Below, one piece after another: positions 4,681 through 57,378 of a stretch of DNA of 64,000 nucleotides (within the stretch, counting starts at the first letter, position 1; every line of letters begins with the position of its first letter). The notes below the pieces were generated by a model. The model was not told where the DNA came from and made no database searches. It worked only from the letters and a program-made list of their open reading frames with translations. Made by a program: the position numbers and the translations under genes. Origin of the DNA: an uncultured Clostridia bacterium (GTDB lineage Bacteria > Bacillota > Clostridia > Christensenellales > UBA1242); the NCBI GenBank assembly GCA_947649575.1, contig CANSRZ010000004.1:71569-135568 (forward strand). Reading direction: 5' to 3'.

Positions 4681-5976
4681 ATGAACTATTCACCAAGACA
4701 AGTTGTTGAAGAACTTGATAAATATATTGTTGGGCAAGCAAAGGCAAAAAGAGCGGTTGCTATTGCACTCAGAAATCGTTATCGTCGCAGTCAACTCCCA
4801 AAAGAGTTAAGAGAGGAAATTACTCCTAAAAATATCATTATGCGTGGCCCTACTGGCGTTGGTAAAACTGAAATTGCAAGACGTCTTGCTAAACTTGTTA
4901 AAGCGCCATTTATTAAAATCGAGGCCACTAAGTACACAGAGGTTGGCTATGTTGGACGTGATGTTGAAAGCATGATTCGTGACCTTGTTGAGGTTTCTGT
5001 AAGAATGGTCAAAGACGAAAAAGCTCATGAAATGGAAGCAAAAGTTGCTCCAACTGTTGAAAATCGCATAGTTGACGCTATTTGCGACACTTGGCGCGCT
5101 CAGGACAAGCAAGTTGACCGCACAATTGTTACAAACGAATATCGCGCAGGCATGCTTGATAATGAAAATATTGATATTATGGTGACTGATACTCCAAAAC
5201 CTATGGTGGCTATTGGTGGGCCTGGGATTGATTTAGGTTCTATGTTTGACGGGATTATGCCATCAAAACGAAAAAAGCGCAAAATGACTGTTGCAAGAGC
5301 GCGCGAAGTTGTTATGGCGGAAGAATGTGACCGCGTGATTGATAACGACAATGTGAACGCAGAGGCAATACGCCGTGCAGAAGAAGAGGGCATTATCTTT
5401 ATTGACGAAATTGATAAGATTATCGGCAAAGGCGGAGCAAGCAATAATCAAGATGTTTCAAGAGAGGGCGTGCAACGTGATATTCTGCCAATTGTTGAGG
5501 GTAGCACAGTTTCAACCAAATATGGCAATGTAAAAACGGACTTTATTCTTTTTGTAGCATCAGGAGCGTTCCATGTTAGCCGTATTGAAGATATGATTCC
5601 AGAACTTCAAGGCCGTTTCCCAATTCGCGTTGACCTTGACAACCTTACAAAAGAGGACTTCAAAAAAATTTTGGCAGAAACCAAAAACTCACTTATCTTC
5701 CAGTATTCAAGCATATTGAAAGTTGACAATATTGACCTCAAATTTACAAAGGACGCGCTTGACGAAATTGCTGAAATGGCAGTTGCTGAAAATGAAACAA
5801 GCGAAAACATTGGTGCACGCCGACTCCACACAATCATGGAACTTCTTCTTGAAGACATTTCTTTCAACGCCTCAGGCGACCACCCAATGCTTGAAGTGAA
5901 GATTGATAGAGCATATGTTCAAAACGCATTCAAAGAAACAAAGAAAAAGTTTGATTTAAAGAAGTATGTGTTATAA
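4681..5976 (+). CDS. hslU: ATP-dependent protease ATPase subunit HslU (ClpY)
   Basis: Start moved from the track's 4624 to the ATG at 4681 (MNYSPRQVVEELDKYIVGQ), directly after the hslV stop. Walker A GPTGVGKTEIARRLA. Walker B IIFIDEIDKI. Confidence 0.95.
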   Translation: MNYSPRQVVEELDKYIVGQAKAKRAVAIALRNRYRRSQLPKELREEITPKNIIMRGPTGVGKTEIARRLAKLVKAPFIKIEATKYTEVGYVGRDVESMIRDLVEVSVRMVKDEKAHEMEAKVAPTVENRIVDAICDTWRAQDKQVDRTIVTNEYRAGMLDNENIDIMVTDTPKPMVAIGGPGIDLGSMFDGIMPSKRKKRKMTVARAREVVMAEECDRVIDNDNVNAEAIRRAEEEGIIFIDEIDKIIGKGGASNNQDVSREGVQRDILPIVEGSTVSTKYGNVKTDFILFVASGAFHVSRIEDMIPELQGRFPIRVDLDNLTKEDFKKILAETKNSLIFQYSSILKVDNIDLKFTKDALDEIAEMAVAENETSENIGARRLHTIMELLLEDISFNASGDHPMLEVKIDRAYVQNAFKETKKKFDLKKYVL

Positions 5977-7332: not shown

Positions 7333-7641
7333 ATGGAAATTTTGAATAAGGATAATTTTGAAGAACAGACAAAAGATGGCATTGTTGTTGTTGACTTTTT
7401 TGCAACCTGGTGTGGACCTTGCAGAATGATGAGCCCAATTTTGGAAGAAGTGCAAGAAGAGCTTGCAGGCAAGGTGAAAATCTTTAAGGTTGATGTGGAT
7501 GAGAGCGAAGAACTTGCACGCAAGTTTGGAGTTATGATGATACCAACAATTGTTATCTTAGAAAACGGGGAGCAACGCGAAAAGCACGTCGGGCTCTGGC
7601 AAAAAGACGATATGCTTGATGAAATAAAATCGTATCTTTAA
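7333..7641 (+). CDS. trxA: thioredoxin
   Basis: 102 aa with active site WCGPC. RBS AAGGAGA upstream. Confidence 0.9.
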   Translation: MEILNKDNFEEQTKDGIVVVDFFATWCGPCRMMSPILEEVQEELAGKVKIFKVDVDESEELARKFGVMMIPTIVILENGEQREKHVGLWQKDDMLDEIKSYL

Positions 7642-8445: not shown

Positions 8446-9618
8446 ATGAGAAAAGTTTATCTTGATAATGCAGCAACAACTTATGTTTCTAGCGAAGTTT
8501 TGGCTGAAATGTTGCCTTGTTTTAACACAATTTATGGCAATTCAAGCTCGCTTCACAGCTTTGGGCGTGAGGCTTCAAACATTGTGGACAGAGCTAGGGA
8601 CAGAATAGCAAATGCTATTGGTGCTGCAAAATCCAATGAAATATATTTTACTTCTGGCGGAACAGAAGCTGATAACTGGGCAATTAAAGGCATTGCTCAT
8701 GCTTATGCAAATAAAGGCAAACACATCATCACAAGCGCGATTGAGCATCATGCGATTTTGGAAGCCTGCAAACAACTTGAAAAAGAGGGTTATGAAGTGA
8801 CTTATCTTCCTGTTGACAAATATGGTCTTGTAAGTTTGCCTGACCTTATTCATGAAATCAGAAAGGACACAACTCTTGTTTCAATTATGACTGTTAATAA
8901 CGAAGTTGGAACTATTCAAAATGTTAAAGCTATTGCAAAGATTTGTCATGAATATGGCGTAATTTTCCATACTGACGCTGTTCAGGGCATTGGCGCACTT
9001 AGAATCAATGTTAAGGATATGGATATCGACGCTATGAGCATTTCGGGGCATAAAATTTATGGACCAAAAGGCGTCGGCGCGTTGTATCTTAAAAACGGGA
9101 TCAGAATTGATCCACTTATCATTGGCGGCAATCAAGAACGTGCTAAACGTGGCGGAACTATTAACGTTCCTGCTGTTGCTGGCTTTGGAAAAGCTGTTGA
9201 AATTGCTGTTCGTGACATTGCAATCAATCAACAAAAACTTAAAGCAATTCGTGAGTACTTTATTGATAAGGTTACAGAGCGCATTCCATATATTCAAATC
9301 AACGGACACCCACAACAAAAAATTCAAGGCACTGTTCATATCTCTTTTGAGATGATTGAGGGAGAATCAATCCTTATGCTGCTTGACCTTGAAGGTATTG
9401 CTGTTTCTACTGCTTCGGCTTGCACTTCAAATTCACTTGAGCCATCTCATGTTTTGCGTGCTATGGGCATTCCTGATGAAATTGCACAGGGCTCAATTCG
9501 TTTCTCATTTGGCAAAAATATTTCTAAAGACGATGTTGACTATGTTGTTGATGTGCTTGAAAAAGCAGTTGAACAACTTAGATCGATTTCACCAATAACT
9601 AAAGCGGGGAGGAAATAA
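8446..9618 (+). CDS. nifS: cysteine desulfurase (NifS/IscS type)
   Basis: Start moved from the track's 8338 to the ATG at 8446 (MRKVYLDNAATT), preceded by AAGGAAG. PLP-lysine motif SGHKIYGPKG. Catalytic loop SACTSNS. Confidence 0.9.
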   Translation: MRKVYLDNAATTYVSSEVLAEMLPCFNTIYGNSSSLHSFGREASNIVDRARDRIANAIGAAKSNEIYFTSGGTEADNWAIKGIAHAYANKGKHIITSAIEHHAILEACKQLEKEGYEVTYLPVDKYGLVSLPDLIHEIRKDTTLVSIMTVNNEVGTIQNVKAIAKICHEYGVIFHTDAVQGIGALRINVKDMDIDAMSISGHKIYGPKGVGALYLKNGIRIDPLIIGGNQERAKRGGTINVPAVAGFGKAVEIAVRDIAINQQKLKAIREYFIDKVTERIPYIQINGHPQQKIQGTVHISFEMIEGESILMLLDLEGIAVSTASACTSNSLEPSHVLRAMGIPDEIAQGSIRFSFGKNISKDDVDYVVDVLEKAVEQLRSISPITKAGRK

Positions 9619-49421: not shown

Positions 49422-49724
49422 ATGGATAAAAAAGAATTTGAACAAACAATAAAATTAACGGAATTGTTTTATGGGGTGTGCTCATCGGATGTTGATCCTA
49501 AACAGGTTGAGGAATTTGAAAAGACAATCAACGAAATTGCTGATCGTTTTATTTTTGAGAGAAATTTTGATAAAAAGCTTGAGAGATATTCTCTCCTAAG
49601 AATTCAAAAAGTATCTTCAAGGCAAAGAGATAATGCCTTAGTGAATTTGTTTTCAGATGCAATAAAGGTTTGTCCTAGTTTGGCGTCGAAGCAAGATGAA
49701 AAATTGCAACACCTTTATGCATAA
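49422..49724 (+). CDS. hypothetical protein (100 aa)
   Basis: Intact ORF with AAAGGAG RBS. Confidence 0.45.
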   Translation: MDKKEFEQTIKLTELFYGVCSSDVDPKQVEEFEKTINEIADRFIFERNFDKKLERYSLLRIQKVSSRQRDNALVNLFSDAIKVCPSLASKQDEKLQHLYA

Positions 49725-49725
49725 A

Positions 49726-50046
49726 ATGGCAAACGCAGGTTTTTGGAGTGTTTGTCTTAGTGCTGTTGAATGTGTGCCAGACTCAATGGATGTTAAGAAT
49801 AACGAAGGTAAAACTTTTGTTGATATTTATGGTGCGGCAAGTTTGAAATGTTCTTGTGCAAAAATATTAAGACTTTGCGGGGGTGCTAGTAAAGAATTAA
49901 AGGGAGTTTATAAAACTCTCTGCGAAAAATATCCAGAAGCCAAAGACCCTTATGCAGTGGCTGTTGATAAATCTATGGTAGAGCATAAAAAAGAAGAATC
50001 AGAAAAACCTTTGCTATCCAATATCGAGTTTTGGTTTGAAGATTAA
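49726..50046 (+). CDS. hypothetical protein (106 aa)
   Basis: An ATG immediately after the previous stop (MANAGFWSV...). The track's alternative start 49696 overlaps the previous gene. Confidence 0.45.
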   Translation: MANAGFWSVCLSAVECVPDSMDVKNNEGKTFVDIYGAASLKCSCAKILRLCGGASKELKGVYKTLCEKYPEAKDPYAVAVDKSMVEHKKEESEKPLLSNIEFWFED

Positions 50047-50058
50047 AAACAAAAATTT

Positions 50059-50091
50059 CTTGTCAAAAACACTTGACAAGGGATTTTTTTT
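50059..50091 (+). terminator. terminator after the 49726 gene, overlapping the rpsL promoter -35 box
   Basis: CTTGTCAA-AAACAC-TTGACAAG, then GGATTTTTTTT. Confidence 0.6.
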
Positions 50092-50101
50092 ATTGTATAA
50101 T
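50073..50101 (+). promoter_or_regulatory. consensus promoter of the str operon leader
   Basis: TTGACA (50073-78), 17-nt spacer, TGTATAAT (50094-50101). Confidence 0.75.
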
Positions 50102-50298
50102 CATCCACGTATGCTTCGTTGTCGGAAGCAATGCTAAAACAAACTTTTGCTTTGGAGTGATTGACAAAGTGAAATGTGTTGAAAAGCATTAACAAACAAC
50201 AAGTGAGGTTTTCTCGCTGATTTGCTTAAATAGCAAAGTTACTCTTTAGGTGTGGGTAATCGTGTTGTTCATGTTTTACAATGTTTTTGCATTTTTTT

Positions 50299-50338
50299 CG
50301 CGGCAATAAAGTTACAGAACTTTAATGTCGCGTTTTTT
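50299..50338 (+). terminator. intrinsic terminator-like hairpin inside the rpsL leader (candidate attenuator)
   Basis: 15-bp stem CGCGGCAATAAAGTT / AACTTTAATGTCGCG (1 G-U, 1 mismatch), 4-nt loop, followed by TTTTTT. Lies 30 nt upstream of the rpsL ATG. Confidence 0.65.
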
Positions 50339-50367
50339 AACGACAAATTTTAAAAAGGAGGAAAAAG

Positions 50368-50745
50368 ATGCCTACAATAAACCAACTCGTTAGACAAGGA
50401 AGAAAGACTTTTGATAAAAAATCAAAATCTCCACTTCTTGAAGAGAACCCTCAAAGAAGAGGCGTTTGTTTGTCAGTAAGAACTGCAACTCCTAAGAAGC
50501 CTAACTCAGCTCTTAGAAAGATTGCCAGAGTTAAACTTACAAACGGTTATGAAGGAACTTGCTACATCCCTGGTGTAGGACACAACTTGCAAGAGCATAG
50601 TGTTGTTCTTATCCGTGGAGGAAGAGTTAAGGACTTGCCTGGTGTACGTTATCATATTGTTCGTGGAACTCTTGATACCGCTGGCGTTGTTAACAGAAAG
50701 CAAAGCCGTTCTAAATATGGTGCTAAAAAACCAAAATCTAAATAG
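50368..50745 (+). CDS. rpsL: 30S ribosomal protein S12
   Basis: [13 protein letters not shown]... [10 protein letters not shown] ... canonical S12. Confidence 0.97.
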
Positions 50746-50876
50746 CAGCCCAAGCGCTGCGCGACTGTCAGCATAGAGAATTGAAATTTATGTTGCATTC
50801 GTTCTACATTTAATAAAAATTACTAAATTAAAAACATATTTATGTGCTACGGCACTGCAAAAGGAGGATTTATACA

Positions 50877-51350
50877 ATGCCAAGAAGAAATAGTGCGGTA
50901 AAGAAAGATGTGCTTCCTGATCCAATTTATAACAGCAAAGTTGTTACTAAACTCGTTAACCAAGTTATGGAAAGCGGAAAGAAAGGACTTGCTCAAAGAA
51001 TTGTTTACGGAGCTTTCGATATAATTAAAGAAAAGATGGGTGCTGAACCTATGGACGTATTCACAACTGCTCTTGAAAATGTTAAGCCTGTGCTTGAAAC
51101 AAAATCAAGAAGAGTTGGTGGTGCTACTTACCAAGTTCCAATGGAAATCAGACCTGAAAGACGTCAAACTCTTGCAATCAGATGGATTGTTGACTTTTCA
51201 AGAAAACGTTCAGCTGAAAGAGGAATGGACGCTAAACTTGCAGGCGAAATTATGGACGCTTACAATTCTACTGGTTCATCAATTAAAAGAAGAGATGAAA
51301 TGCACAGAATGGCTGAAGCCAATAAGGCGTTTGCTCATTACAAATGGTAG
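50877..51350 (+). CDS. rpsG: 30S ribosomal protein S7
   Basis: Start at [20 protein letters not shown] after AAAGGAGG. Canonical S7. Confidence 0.97.
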
Positions 51351-51459
51351 AATCGAAAATCTTGCTATACATCTCAAACTTTGCTAGGCAAAGTTCTACG
51401 ATTTTAACGCAAGTTTTCGATTCTCGCCGCCAAACGAAATCGCTAGCGATTTGCGGCGA
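51350..51459 (+). promoter_or_regulatory. two strong GC-rich hairpins immediately 3' of rpsG
   Basis: GAATCGAAAATCTTGC (51350-65) pairs with GCAAGTTTTCGATTC (51409-23), with an inner hairpin CTTTGC-TAG-GCAAAG. Second hairpin is TCGCCGC..AAATCGC-TA-GCGATTT-GCGGCGA (51424-59). No T run follows. Confidence 0.6.
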
Positions 51460-51502
51460 CTCTCGTGCGAAGAAAAAATTCTAAGCCGATAAGGAGAAAA
51501 AT

Positions 51503-51781
51503 ATGGAGTTAAACAAAAAGACCAAAGATATAATGAATAAAAATCTTTTAGACGAACTCGGGATATCTTTTGAAGAAGCGCAAGAAATGGATTGGGAAGA
51601 GTTTGAAAGTCTTATTGAATTAAAGTCAGGTAAAAAACTTAGTTATGCAAAACCAAGTATTTTACATCAAAATTCTGGTGATGATAGTGTTCTTATTGAT
51701 AATGGTAGATTCACGACTATGGAAGAAGTGGATGAAAAAATGGATAGAATGCTCAAAAAGGAAAGAGGTTTAGAAAAATAA
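51503..51781 (+). CDS. hypothetical protein (92 aa) inserted between rpsG and fusA
   Basis: Intact ORF with AAGGAGA RBS. Acidic. No motif. Confidence 0.5.
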   Translation: MELNKKTKDIMNKNLLDELGISFEEAQEMDWEEFESLIELKSGKKLSYAKPSILHQNSGDDSVLIDNGRFTTMEEVDEKMDRMLKKERGLEK

Positions 51782-51841
51782 AAAGTGTTTAACATCACTT
51801 TAAAAAGTTAAAATGTGCATTTGCACACAAAAGAGGTTATT

Positions 51842-52426
51842 ATGTATATTGAAAAACTCAGTGATGAAAAGATTTTGACTATTGCTAAAAAAGCAACAAT
51901 AGACCATTTCCCAAAAGAATGGCATGCAAATATTAGTTATGAGATTTTGGATGGGGAAAACAAAAGGGTAAGAAAAGAACCTGAAAAATTCTTCACTTAT
52001 GATGGATCACTTGGTTCTCCTATTGCACGAACATTACCTACTCATAAATTTTATGGTTATGCCCAATTTAAACAAAAACTTGTTAAAAGAGCAGAAGGTG
52101 GTTTTGCTGAGGAGTTATGTGTTGTAAAAACTACAAAAGAAATGGGATATGCTTATATCAAGGCAGAGTTGAAACAGCCTGAGAAAGAACCTTTAAAAAT
52201 TGGCTATATGTATATTGATGATAACACTTTTGAATTCTTTAATTTTGAATTATTTAAAGAAGAAGTGGACCCAGACTATATAATAGCAGAAGATTGGTTG
52301 CAGTTATGTCATGGTGGAATATTGCCAAATAAACCTGAAGCACAAAATCAACGAGAACAGTCTAAAAAGATTTTTAAACAAGAAATGGCTAATGAATTTG
52401 CTGATTATGCAGAAAGTCAAAAATAA
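51842..52426 (+). CDS. hypothetical protein (194 aa) inserted between rpsG and fusA
   Basis: ATG after AGAGG (MYIEKLSDEK...). No motif. Confidence 0.5.
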   Translation: MYIEKLSDEKILTIAKKATIDHFPKEWHANISYEILDGENKRVRKEPEKFFTYDGSLGSPIARTLPTHKFYGYAQFKQKLVKRAEGGFAEELCVVKTTKEMGYAYIKAELKQPEKEPLKIGYMYIDDNTFEFFNFELFKEEVDPDYIIAEDWLQLCHGGILPNKPEAQNQREQSKKIFKQEMANEFADYAESQK

Positions 52427-52517
52427 TTTAATAAACATAAAACCTTATAAAAATAATAAAAAGGTGGTTATAACCTGCCTAAAAAGGTTATAAATCTTAT
52501 AAAAGGAAATTAAAAAA

Positions 52518-54590
52518 ATGGCTAATGATTTACACATGACTAGAAATGTTGGTATCATGGCTCACATTGATGCTGGTAAAACTACTACCACTGAGCGTAT
52601 TCTTTACTATACTGGTAAGAGCCACAAAATTGGTGAAGTTCACGATGGCGCTGCTACTATGGACTGGATGGCTCAAGAGCAAGAAAGAGGTATTACTATT
52701 ACTTCTGCTTGTACTACTTGTAAATGGAAAAACCACACAATCAACATCATCGACACTCCTGGACACGTTGACTTCACTATCGAAGTTGAACGTTCTTTGA
52801 AAGTTCTTGATGGTGCTGTGCTTGTTTTGTCTGCTCGTGACAAGGTTCAACCTCAAACTGAAACAGTTTGGCGTCAAGCTACAAAATACCATGTTCCAAC
52901 AATTATCTATGTTAACAAAATGGATAGAGATGCGGCTGACTTCTTTGGTTGCCTCGAAAGCATCGAAAGACGTCTTAAAACTCCAACTCTTGCTATTCAA
53001 ATGCCTATTGGAGAGGCTGATACTTTCAGCGGAATTATCGACCTTTTGACAATGAAAGCTGAAATTTACAAAGACGATATGGGAACTCAAATTGAAATCA
53101 CTGAAATCCCTGCTGAACTTAAAGACAAAGCTCAACAATATCACGATAAAATGATTGAACAAATCGTTGAAACTGATGATGTTTTGCTTGAAAAGTTCTT
53201 CGGCGGAGAAGAAATTTCAATGGACGAACTCAAAAAAGCTCTTAGAAAGGGCACTATCGCAAAAACTTTCACTCCTGTTCTTTGCGGTTCTTCTTACAAG
53301 AACAAGGGTGTTCAAATGTTACTTGACGCTATGGTTGATTATCTCCCAAGCCCACTTGACATTCCACCAATCAAGGGTGTTAACCCTGATAACGAACAAA
53401 CTGAGGAAAGACATGCTGACGAAACTGCTCCACTTGCTGGACTTGCATTCAAAATTATGAATGACCCTTACGTTGGCGGACTTACTTTCTTCCGCGTTTA
53501 CTCTGGTAAACTTACAGCTGGCTCTTATGTTTATAACTCAAACACTGGCAAACAAGAGCGCGTTGGTCGTCTTATCCGTATGCACGCAAACAATCGTCAA
53601 GAAATCACTGAGGTTGGTGCAGGGGATATCGCTGCTATTGTTGGGCTTAAAGATACTATCACAGGACACACTCTTTGTGATGAAAAACATCCAATTCAAC
53701 TTGAGTCTATGCAATTCCCAGAGCCTGTTATTCAACTTGCTATCGAGCCTAAAACAAAAGATATGCAAGAGAAAATGGGTATTGGCTTAGGCAGACTTAT
53801 GAGAGAAGACCCATCTTTCAGAGTTACAACTAACCAAGAAACTGGACAAACTCTTATCGCTGGTATGGGCGAACTTCACCTTGAAATTATCGTTGACAGA
53901 CTTCTTCGCGAATTTAAAGTTGAAGCTAAAGTTGGTGAACCACAAGTTTCTTATCGTGAAGCTATCAAGAAAGCTGTTAAAGCTGAGGGTAAATTCATCC
54001 GTCAATCTGGTGGTAAAGGTCAATATGGTCACTGCGTTATCGAACTTGAACCATTGCCAGCAGGCAGTGGATATGAATTCGTTGACAAAACTGTTGGCGG
54101 CTCTATTCCAAAAGAATATATTCAACCTATTAATAATGGTATCCAAGAAGCAGCTCATAACGGCGTAGTTGCTGGTTATGACACAGTTGACTTCCGTGTT
54201 ACTGTTGTTGACGGCTCTTATCACGAAGTTGACTCTTCTGAAATGGCGTTCAAGATTGCTGGCTCAATGGCATTCCAAGACGGCGCTAAAAAAGCTGATC
54301 CAGTTCTTCTTGAGCCTATCATGAAAGTTACTGTAGAAGTTCCTGATGAATATCTTGGAACAGTTATGGGCAACCTTACTTCTCGTCGCGGTATGCTTAC
54401 AGGCACAGAAAGCAGTGCAGGTATTCAAATCGTAAACGCAGAAGTTCCACTTGCTGAAATGTTTGGTTATGCAACTGACCTTCGCAGCCAAACTCAAGGC
54501 CGTGGCAATTATGTTATGGAACCACTTCGTTATCAAGAAGTTCCAAAATCAATTGCTCAAAACATTGTTGCAGCAAGAGCGAAAAACTAA
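52518..54590 (+). CDS. fusA: elongation factor G
   Basis: [28 protein letters not shown]. 690 aa. Confidence 0.97.
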
Positions 54591-54908
54591 GGCTGTGCGG
54601 GGACAACTAGAATTTTAAACGCGGACACGCCTTTGGCTAACCGCTAAAATTCGTTTTCCCCACAGTACCCCTTTTCGCCTCTTGCGAAATCACGCAGTGC
54701 ATTTCGCTGCGAGTAGGGAGGTAAGCAATTTTTCAGGGTCGGGCAAAGCCCTTCTTCCCATAAAAACTTGCTTACGATTATATAAAATTTTTAGTATGCT
54801 AGATGCTAAAAAAGCAAAATATAGTGCCTTGTTTGCTTAAATTTACAAAATATTGAGTTTAGGCAGGCAAAAAACTTATAAAAACTTAAAAAAGTTATCA
54901 AAATCATT

Positions 54909-54936
54909 TTGAATTTAATTCTAAATGTGTTAAAAT
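54909..54936 (+). promoter_or_regulatory. candidate internal promoter for tuf
   Basis: TTGAAT (54909-14), 16-nt spacer, TGtTAAAAT (54928-36). Confidence 0.55.
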
Positions 54937-54976
54937 AACATCGTAAAAAATATTTACAAAAAAGGAGATTAAAAAA

Positions 54977-56179
54977 ATGGCAACTGGAGTATTTAATAGA
55001 TCTAAGCCACACGTAAACATTGGAACAGTTGGTCACGTAGACCATGGTAAAACTACTTTGACTGCTGCTATCACAATGACCCTTGCTGCTGAAGGTAAAG
55101 CAGAAAAAATGAGATATGACCAAATTGATAAGGCACCTGAAGAAAAAGCTAGAGGTATCACTATCAATACATCTCACGTTGAATATGAAACAGACAAACG
55201 TCACTACGCTCACGTTGACTGCCCAGGACACGCTGACTACGTTAAAAACATGATTACTGGTGCTGCTCAAATGGACGGAGCTATCCTTGTTGTTGCTTCA
55301 ACTGATGGTCCTATGCCTCAAACAAGAGAACACATTCTTCTTGCTCGTCAAGTTGGCGTTCCTTACATCGTTGTTTTCATGAACAAAACTGATCAAGTTG
55401 ACGATCCTGAACTTCTTGAACTTGTTGAAATGGAAATCAGAGATTTGCTTACTGAGTATGGTTTCCCAGGAGATAAAACTCCTATTATTAAGGGCTCTGC
55501 TCTTAAAGCTTTGGAAGCTGCTCAAGCTGGAAACGCTTCTGACCCTGCTTGCGACTGCATCCGTGAACTTATGGATGCTGTTGACTCTTATATCCCTGAC
55601 CCAGTTCGTGACACTGATAAACCTTTCCTTATGCCTGTTGAAGACGTATTTACTATCACTGGCCGTGGAACTGTTGCTACTGGTAGAGTAGAAAGAGGAC
55701 AAATTAAGGTTAACGACGTTGTTGAAATCGTTGGTCTTGGTGCATCTAAACAAACTGTTGTTACAGGCGTTGAAATGTTCCACAAATCACTTGACGCTGC
55801 AATGGCTGGTGATAATGCTGGACTTCTTCTTCGTGGTGTTCAAAGAAATGAAATCGAAAGAGGTCAAGTTCTTTGCAAGCCTGGTTCAATTCACCCACAC
55901 ACAAAATTCACTGCTGAAGTTTACGTTCTTAAGAAAGAAGAGGGTGGACGTCACACTCCATTCTTCAATGGTTACAGACCACAATTCTATTTCAGAACAA
56001 CTGACATCACTGGTGTTATCGAACTTGAAAAGGGCGTAGAAATGGTTATGCCTGGCGATAATGTAAGAATGACTATCTCTCTTATTAACCCAATCGCTAT
56101 TGAACAAGGACTTCGTTTCGCTATCCGTGAGGGTGGCAGAACAGTTGGTTCTGGTGTTGTTGCTTCTATCATTGAGTAA
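54977..56179 (+). CDS. tuf: elongation factor Tu
   Basis: [26 protein letters not shown]. 400 aa. Confidence 0.97.
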
Positions 56180-56451: not shown

Positions 56452-57378
56452 TTAGCATGGATCACAATATTTATTCCGTTCAATTTCAACTTCAAGTCTT
56501 TTTTTATACTTTTCACTTTTAACTTGTTTATAAAATGGGTCTTTTTCTCTGCCATTAATTTTATCAAGTTCAGTTATAAATCTTTCATATTTTTCAACAG
56601 ATCCAAATGAATGGCAAATTAAATCATTGATTGGTTTGTCAATTCTTGCATTTAATCTTTTTATAGTTGTTTCATTGTAGTTATTCTGGTGAATATCATT
56701 ATAAATTTCTCTAAGACTTTCAATTCGAGAAAGATATGTAATAAAACGACGAGTAGGTGAATGGCTAGCTTTTGCTGTATCATAACCATTTTTATCTGCA
56801 ACATATAATTTTTCGCCACGCTTTGAGTAAACATCAATGGTGCTATCGCCAACAGCCACAATAACACCTTTTAATACTTCAAATTGCTCAACTTTGCTGT
56901 ATCGTGCTGGCTCAAAAGAATTATCTTTGTATTGGATAGGCACAATTTCTTGACCTTTTTTGTCTATTATCCCAAGTAATCCGTTTTTTCCAACAACACC
57001 AAGCCCGTTTACAAATAAACTAACGTGATCATAAGTCCCTATAGGATTGTCAACATACTCATCATAAACGTCTACTCCGTTCAAAGTTTGAACAGAAAAC
57101 ATTCCGTCTCCGATTGAGCAAAAGTTCCATTCAGTTTCACTAAAAACATTGCCTGAAAGGCTACCAGCATCATCACTGATTGTAACAGAAGCGCTATTAA
57201 ACATTTGTGCATTTTCTGGAGTCATCACTTCAATAATTTGCCCTCTTTCACCATGAATATGCTTGCATTTGTAAGGTATAATATTCTGTTTGATTATAGC
57301 GTTTTGTGATGAACGTTGAAAACCATCTGCAATAGAGTCAAAATCATCTGTAATTTCAACAAATTTTTTCTTTTTCAT
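56452..57378 (-). CDS. WG-repeat-containing protein
   Basis: Segments such as VGKNGLLGIIDKKGQEIVPIQY resemble the KWG/WG repeat family. 308 aa. Confidence 0.55.
   Translation of the reverse strand: MKKKKFVEITDDFDSIADGFQRSSQNAIIKQNIIPYKCKHIHGERGQIIEVMTPENAQMFNSASVTISDDAGSLSGNVFSETEWNFCSIGDGMFSVQTLNGVDVYDEYVDNPIGTYDHVSLFVNGLGVVGKNGLLGIIDKKGQEIVPIQYKDNSFEPARYSKVEQFEVLKGVIVAVGDSTIDVYSKRGEKLYVADKNGYDTAKASHSPTRRFITYLSRIESLREIYNDIHQNNYNETTIKRLNARIDKPINDLICHSFGSVEKYERFITELDKINGREKDPFYKQVKSEKYKKRLEVEIERNKYCDPC

Follow-up and report, generated by a model that had tools for sequence, protein, structure and literature searches.

The window analyzed here is a 64,000-nucleotide (nt) stretch of DNA, to which all positions refer unless a contig or locus is named, and our subject is the interval between rpsG and fusA in its str operon. 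The genome that holds the window (G000; 1.09 Mb, 9 contigs, 95% complete) belongs to a genus of Christensenellales-like gut Clostridia with 154 species representatives and genomes of ∼0.7 to 1.5 Mb; its relatives, whose loci and genomes carry L and G codes below, are all metagenome-assembled genomes from animal and human gut or short contigs. The four str operon genes, rpsL, rpsG, fusA, and tuf, lie in order on the plus strand. rpsG and fusA are not adjacent across a short spacer: 1,167 nt separate the rpsG stop from the fusA start, and two open reading frames (ORFs) on the same strand lie inside, giving the order rpsL, rpsG, a 152-nt spacer, ORF92, ORF194, a 91-nt spacer, fusA, and tuf. The guanine-plus-cytosine (GC) content of the two ORFs is 30 to 32%, versus 39 to 42% in their flanks. 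A preliminary description of this DNA had reported two intact ORFs here, an acidic one of 92 amino acids (aa) and another of 194 aa, both with good ribosome binding sites (RBSs), accompanied by spacers of 152 and 91 nt. The coordinates, order, and spacer lengths were all confirmed, and the palindrome that it had noted in the second spacer (GGTTATAACC) lies at positions 52466 to 52475.

Identified by translation, rpsL (ribosomal protein S12; 50368 to 50745; 85 to 91% identity across the genus) and rpsG (ribosomal protein S7; 50877 to 51350; 78 to 92% identity in 59 of 61 genus genomes) precede the slot on the plus strand, and fusA (EF-G; 52518 to 54590; first 90 nt 96 to 99% identical to those of loci L034 and L044) and tuf (EF-Tu; 54977 to 56179) follow it on the same strand. 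A sigma-70-type consensus promoter, TTGACA-17-TATAAT, matches at 12/12 positions upstream of rpsL (50073 to 50101, plus strand); it is the sole perfect site between 50000 and 56500 and is presumed to drive the str operon. No plus-strand terminator was predicted over positions 50218 to 56137 and hence none between the two ORFs. The locus combines a consensus promoter upstream of rpsL with the absence of a predicted plus-strand terminator up to tuf, and a single str transcript is putative.

The length and content of the slot vary widely within the genus. In 26 other genus species the rpsG-fusA spacer measures 65 to 1,038 nt (median, 323), compared with a median of 36 nt at 66 loci outside the genus (Mann-Whitney p = 1.5e-7), and the genes flanking it are at least 80% identical at the nucleotide level across the genus. 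Elsewhere the slot carries cargo unrelated to ORF92 and ORF194, including a 305-aa DHH/DHHA1 phosphoesterase, a 136-aa nucleoside-deoxyribosyltransferase-like protein, coiled-coil lysine-rich proteins of 93 to 201 aa, and ORFs of 47 to 56 aa, and in some genus species it holds structured noncoding DNA alone.

Variation extends to the strain level. In two short metagenome contigs (L171 and L173), the structured element that fills the 152-nt spacer (class A, described below) is identical to that of the window at 152/152 positions and the fusA 5′ end is 97 to 98% identical; the order there is rpsG, class A, ORF92, 78 nt, and fusA, without ORF194. In L174, from another sample, ORF194 is present with 3/585 nt different (99.5% identity) beside a different ORF92 allele that has 23 clustered differences. 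Locus L034, whose S7 and EF-G are 96 to 97% identical to those of the window, has a second type of structured element (class B), ORF92, 55 nt, and fusA and also lacks ORF194. L044, with flanks 95 to 97% identical at the protein level, carries a 34%-identical ORF194-family gene directly after rpsG, followed by an unrelated 103-aa ORF. Because ORF194 is strain variable, both families are rare in the genus (see below), and the cargo of other species is unrelated, we conclude from these sequence comparisons that neither ORF is a conserved member of the operon.

These results divide the interpretation offered in the preliminary description, which had named absence from close relatives as an outcome that would count against it; ORF194 is indeed missing from L171, L173, and L034. 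Of its two proposals, a small insertion that hitchhikes on a strong operon is supported by that absence, by the rarity of both families in the genus, and by the unrelated genes in the slots of other species. The other, that the ORFs encode ribosome- or elongation factor-associated accessory proteins, is not supported by a distribution in which both genes are dispensable even between strains. The survey of rpsG-fusA junctions that it had called for is the one reported above; it revealed a variable spacer in which neither ORF is a fixed operon member.

ORF194 (51842 to 52426, plus strand; RBS AGAGG) is a 194-codon frame at ∼31% GC, an occurrence to which our own estimate assigns a chance of ∼1e-7 per frame, and it is intact in two independent assemblies. 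An alternative GTG start at 51815 would give 203 aa, and every homologue starts at the methionine equivalent to the ATG. An exhaustive phmmer search of 1.84 billion representatives returned ORF194 itself and only four remote homologues (34 to 37% identity, 186 to 196 aa). Searching with the family profile added members in 6 further genus species, for a total of 7/154; overall there are ∼10 remote homologues at 30 to 45% identity, the closest being that of locus L055 in genome G152 (45 to 48%). Every family gene with visible neighbors sits between rpsG and fusA. An AlphaFold2 (AF2) model built from a 5-sequence alignment was confident (predicted local distance difference test [pLDDT], 85.5; predicted template modeling score [pTM], 0.78) and predicts a sheet of ∼10 strands set between N-terminal and C-terminal helices. 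Foldseek comparison of this model with PDB and BFVD gave no match (best E value, ∼0.03 to 0.05; TM score, <0.25), and a sequence profile search of PDB yielded nothing significant. Residues invariant in the family include L6, P24, W27, E39, K41, Y73, G121, Y122, D127, F132, and N134, a set that in our judgment does not suggest a catalytic center. Our best guess is that the family comprises soluble, nonenzymatic binding proteins with a niche- or conflict-related role. On the evidence of these searches, ORF194 represents a new, very divergent protein family that is found only in the rpsG-fusA slot. Kinship with other slot ORFs (100 aa in L054, 94 aa in L060, and the 103-aa ORF of L044) was considered and rejected, as the only match was a weak local one to a single C-terminal helix (E = 0.0015, probability 17%).

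ORF92 (51503 to 51781, plus strand; isoelectric point, 4.75; RBS AAGGAG) has a wider family, with 53 homologues from uncultured Clostridia detected by profile search (39 to 51% identity), all sharing an invariant SGDDSVLID-GR motif. Its relatives occupy varied loci, including positions after recF, after rmuC, and near rpsI/trxB, and strong matches occur in just 2/154 genus species. Scanning contigs with ORF92 as the query gave no match. Compared with its counterpart in the sister-species contig L034, ORF92 has a nonsynonymous divergence (dN) of 0.11 and a synonymous divergence (dS) of 1.0 (dN/dS, ∼0.11), and 15 synonymous and 8 nonsynonymous differences distinguish it from the L174 allele; this pattern identifies ORF92 as a genuine gene that is evidently under purifying selection. 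The AF2 model of ORF92 was weak (pLDDT, 59), too poor for a structure search. No significant match was found for either ORF in Pfam, PHROGs, PADLOC, or NCBIfam, which bears out the earlier remark that neither has a recognizable motif; remote-homology and structure prediction, which had been proposed at the same time, gave a confident model without a fold relative for ORF194 and a weak model for ORF92. Because of the selection, the homologues, and, for ORF194, the confident fold, we conclude that both are genuine protein genes. They do not form a type II toxin-antitoxin pair: ORF92 occurs without ORF194 in L034, L171, and L173, ORF194 relatives occur without ORF92 in L044, L045, and L048, and neither has a Pfam or PADLOC match. 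The differences between the ORF92 alleles of the window and of L171, L172, L173, and L174 are concentrated in ∼90 nt (51559 to 51650), and the first 56 nt of the gene and the element upstream are identical among these alleles, so the cluster has the appearance of an intragenic recombination tract.

The borders of ORF194 can be placed by comparison with its relatives. L034 and L044 share a 31-nt motif, made up of a small hairpin and an A-rich tail (AGTGTTTAACTTCACTTTAAAAAGTTAAAAT), with its end 22 nt upstream of the fusA ATG. The window has a copy of this leader motif (v1, AGTGTTTAACATCACTTTAAAAAGTTAAAAT; 51784 to 51814, plus strand; 30/31 identity to the L034/L044 motif) directly after ORF92, parted from fusA by a 681-nt insert (51815 to 52495, plus strand) that is missing at exactly this point in L034. 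Within the insert lie, in order, a 5′ palindrome (GTGCATTTGCAC, 51815 to 51826), the RBS, ORF194, a 3′ spacer, and a diverged motif copy, v2 (52463 to 52495), which holds GGTTATAACC and, like the resident motif of L034 and L044, ends 22 nt before fusA. The insert of L044 begins at the same point with a similar palindrome (GTGCCAATGGCAC); a second motif copy lies 5′ of its 103-aa ORF, which is therefore bounded by direct repeats (z = 11 versus shuffles). A v2-like motif is also present at the 3′ end of the homologue in L055. In the window, the similarity of v1 to v2 is not significant alone (z = 1.3). Inserts of other clades have no such leader repeats around them, and scanning metagenomes for the leader motif yielded no additional case. 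Two smaller features of these borders may be recorded here. On the minus strand, both the leader motif (51784 to 51814) and the GTGCATTTGCAC palindrome (51813 to 51828) have the shape of a hairpin followed by a T-run, and they could act as terminators against antisense transcription into the operon. In the L055 slot, the last ∼220 nt before fusA form a GC-rich, apparently structured stretch unlike class A and class B.

The preliminary description had called both spacers unusually structured. This holds for the 152-nt spacer, which folds at −45.8 kcal/mol (z = −4.4; 0/200 shuffles as good), and not for the 91-nt spacer (z = −1.8; 10/200 shuffles as good). The former is a copy of the class A repeat (51351 to 51502, plus strand), composed of a long hairpin, HP1 (∼51351 to 51422), a second, conserved hairpin with its core at 51420 to 51480, HP2 (GCCGCCAAACGAAATCGC...GCGATTTGCGGC), and a tail (ACTCTCGTGCGAAG), after which come the ORF92 5′ untranslated region (UTR) and RBS. 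In L172, as in L171 and L173, this element matches that of the window at 152/152 positions. A covariance model of the hairpin and ACTCTCGTGCGAAG tail (R1) detects 8 class A copies in G000, the other seven lying at C3:8928-8995, C3:125151-125219, C3:125586-125648, C5:95130-95192, C5:106443-106503, C1:145942-145999, and C1:237284-237352. One copy follows rpsG, one follows rpoB, two are in tRNA-operon spacers, and four are elsewhere (three of them beside tRNA genes); 5/8 lie within 300 nt of a tRNA. Compensatory changes are found at 5/13 base pairs, with 100% of cells paired, and all slid controls collapse. Class A is present in 15/31 genus genomes sampled, at 1 to 12 copies where present, and other species (G001, G003, and G046) also have it in their rpsG-fusA and rpoB-rpoC spacers.

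Class B is a repeat of ∼175 nt with three hairpins (fold z = −6.7). It follows rpsG in several sister species, and three copies occur in L034, after rpsG, fusA, and tuf (4766-4940, 7417-7534, and 8971-9132, respectively); in the window, it occupies the fusA-tuf spacer (54597 to 54766, plus strand; 79% identity to L034:4766-4940). Neither class matched an Rfam family at E ≤ 1. A sub-threshold traJ_5 match at 51783 to 51847 (30.8 versus 50 bits) was rejected as chance, and an autoregulatory S7 leader was rejected for class A, which also occurs at tRNAs and after rpoB and has no Rfam family. Structured intergenic repeats known from bacteria include REP/BIME, ERIC, the Correia elements of Neisseria, and the palindromic elements of Rickettsia. 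Classes A and B are like these in being multicopy hairpin elements of ∼70 to 180 nt that sit in transcribed spacers after highly expressed genes with a patchy distribution; they differ in their compensatory stem changes, their strong tRNA association, and their absence from Rfam. The copy number of class A (8 in G000 and 0 to 12 in 30 other genus genomes) is also far below that of typical REP families, and no RAYT/IS200-type Y1 transposase (PF01797) was matched in G000, where positive controls worked. By analogy, both classes seem to behave like transcribed intergenic repeats of the REP, ERIC, or Correia type, and they may be processing or stability signals or tolerated selfish DNA.

A second interrupted operon was observed outside the window. 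At C3:7511-9062 of G000 (minus strand), rpoB and rpoC are separated by 1,552 nt that contain a class A copy and then five tightly packed small ORFs of ∼82, 76, 102, 85, and 75 aa with good RBSs; this junction measures 14 to 85 nt in 23/29 other genus species. The class A copy there even has the ORF92 5′ UTR in common with the window (TTCTAAGCCGATAAGG...AAGGAGAAAAnTATGG), and therefore the element and leader seem to have moved jointly.

Taking these data together, we consider it probable that the rpsG-fusA spacer of this genus is an expanded, recombination-prone slot for accessory genes and that ORF92 and ORF194 are passengers rather than components of translation. The slot of the window would have three layers: a class A copy, the repeat being a structured RNA or DNA element specific to the genus; ORF92, which would have been relocated here and whose family of small acidic proteins is more widespread; and the 681-nt insert, in which ORF194 and its own 3′ hairpin motif would have landed right behind the resident fusA leader motif. 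Read-through from the rpsL promoter most likely accounts for the transcription of both ORFs, and the translation of each is probably independent, because each has its own RBS, both are on the operon strand, and no convincing promoter or terminator of their own is found. The highly conserved flanks would serve as homology arms by which strains and species swap what the slot contains. Spread only by such recombination would trap the ORF194 family in the slot, and this could be why it is seen nowhere else.

The amount of divergence between family members speaks to exchange. ORF194 and its L044 relative differ with a dN of 0.66 and a saturated dS of ∼3.6, a low-identity value that is rough because dS at 35% identity is unreliable, beside a dS of 0.5 to 0.6 for the flanking genes and 1.0 for ORF92. 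This contrast points either to a swapping of old alleles or to extreme diversification, and not to ordinary vertical descent. The roughness of dS weighs against our interpretation, as do four other points. In the sub-clade of L048, L052, L053, and L054, family divergence follows that of the flanks (Spearman rho, 0.67 overall), a pattern that would fit vertical descent with very fast evolution rather than exchange. No recombination tract was visible when the 5′ end of fusA was inspected for one, which makes the homology-arm step hypothetical. That the ORF194 family keeps so strictly to this position could equally be read as a functional tie to the str operon. Finally, we infer the cotranscription and translation of ORF92 and ORF194 from sequence features only. 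Exchange and fast vertical descent are probably both at work.

An alternative explanation for the positional fidelity is that the ORF194 family is a lineage-specific, fast-evolving translation accessory, such as a protein that binds the ribosome, EF-G, or S7, whose place in the str operon is functional (stoichiometric coexpression) and which most species have repeatedly lost. In its favor are the ∼11 independent occurrences of the family, all between rpsG and fusA, a length and predicted architecture kept at 30 to 45% identity, and the sub-clade in which divergence tracks the flanks. Against it are the presence of the family in only 7/154 species, its absence from the nearest relatives of this strain, and the unrelated genes that fill the slot in other species, and ORF194 is unlike any known ribosome-associated protein or fold; we regard this explanation as unlikely. 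ORF194 is dispensable at the strain level and other species carry unrelated cargo, and for these reasons we give more weight to trapping by flank recombination than to a functional need for coexpression as the cause of positional fidelity. A trivial explanation, that the frames are nonfunctional and either spurious or newly arisen from spacer, could appeal to their orphan-like, AT-rich, and database-unannotated character, but it is largely refuted and hardly credible given the dN/dS of ∼0.1, the 15 versus 8 differences, and the 53 homologues of ORF92, together with the equal-length homologues, the pLDDT of 85.5, and the intact frame in two assemblies for ORF194. Strain-level presence and absence, very fast divergence, low GC, and the lack of a known function might also mark a remnant of a phage or other mobile element, such as a moron-like, defense, or antidefense gene integrated in the operon. 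Searches of PHROGs, PADLOC, phage genomes, IMG/VR, and plasmids gave no match, the slot is without an integrase, a long att-type repeat, or any other mobile-element gene, and the insert is a single gene, all of which makes such an origin extremely improbable.

The leader motifs raise the question of whether the slot is filled by integron-like gene cassettes, for which the fusA leader hairpin would be the target of a site-specific recombinase encoded elsewhere. Evidence for such movement includes the L044 insert of the 103-aa ORF between two motif copies of 31 to 36 nt (z = 11), the position of ORF194 between v1 and the diverged v2, the v2-like 3′ motif of the L055 homologue, and the common starting point and similar palindromes (GTGCATTTGCAC and GTGCCAATGGCAC) of the window and L044 inserts. 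These are just two or three examples, however, and the z of 1.3 for v1/v2 in the window, the lack of a GTTRRRY-type core, the lack of such repeats in other clades, and the empty metagenome motif scan count against it. No recombinase lies near the locus (the genome has 7 tyrosine recombinases [PF00589], the nearest ∼27 kb away) and the genome has no Y1 transposase; we consider this mechanism very unlikely. Like integron cassettes, the inserts appear to combine a promoterless ORF with a 3′ hairpin behind a similar resident motif and downstream of a promoter, with motifs alike in form more than in sequence, but a promoterless ORF with its own structured site at a resident site is seen in three cases only (the window, L044, and L055). 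Furthermore, the locus has no IntI integrase and no R′/R″ GTTRRRY boxes (GTTAAAA and GTTATAA do not fit), the leader motifs span ∼31 to 36 nt rather than the 57 to 141 nt of an attC hairpin, and one or two inserts are present instead of an array. A broader proposal is that an undescribed cassette-type mechanism services the rpsG-fusA junction, and here also the rpoB-rpoC junction, inserting promoterless genes with a 3′ hairpin behind the fusA leader, with class A and class B marking or creating the entry points; the ORF194 family would in that case comprise strain-specific modulators, acting perhaps in phage or strain conflict, that must be coexpressed with the machinery of translation. We judge this quite unlikely as well.

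The accessory slot that we favor has precedents of several kinds. Multigene insertions have been described between concatenated translation operons in Proteobacteria (Brandis, Cao and Hughes 2019, PMC6735719). As there, same-strand and mostly lineage-specific genes occupy a fixed junction with contents that differ by species; the present case differs in that the genus is a Clostridia lineage with small genomes, the break lies inside the str operon, one family is confined to the slot, and variation reaches the strain level. Hotspots of horizontal transfer between core genes are a general concept. Species-specific orphan genes (SSOGs) in operon-like contexts have been described for gut species (Vakirlis and Kupczok 2024, PMC11293555). 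Both resemble this slot in having short, low-GC genes of restricted distribution between conserved same-strand neighbors, and a viral origin is not detectable here. ORF194 differs from an orphan gene in its remote homologues in 6 other species, and the mechanism of transfer in the present case is putative. Accordingly, classification as an SSOG was rejected for both ORFs, since ORF194 has remote relatives in metagenomes as well as in 6 other genus species and ORF92 has its 53 homologues.

The interior of the highly conserved str operon can thus act as a strain-level accessory gene slot in a gut Firmicute with a reduced genome. We conclude that variable gene slots among translation genes extend to a genus of Clostridia with reduced genomes, where three features stand out: a break inside the str operon that differs even between strains, a slot-confined family without a detectable fold relative, and two new structured repeat families. 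The locus yields several objects of interest: the slot-confined family with its confident and unmatched fold, the two structured repeat families absent from Rfam, and a leader motif duplicated at insert borders, which hints at a route of gene entry. For annotation, a role in translation should not be deduced here from location within a ribosomal operon.

Minor observations concern the surroundings of the operon. In this genome, tuf is not followed by the S10 operon. Just 5′ of the str promoter, two plus-strand orphan ORFs of 100 and 116 aa with overlapping ends (49422 to 50046) have no Pfam or PHROG match. At the other end, a gene for a 308-aa protein with a weak WG-repeat match (56452 to 57378, minus strand) converges on the end of tuf.

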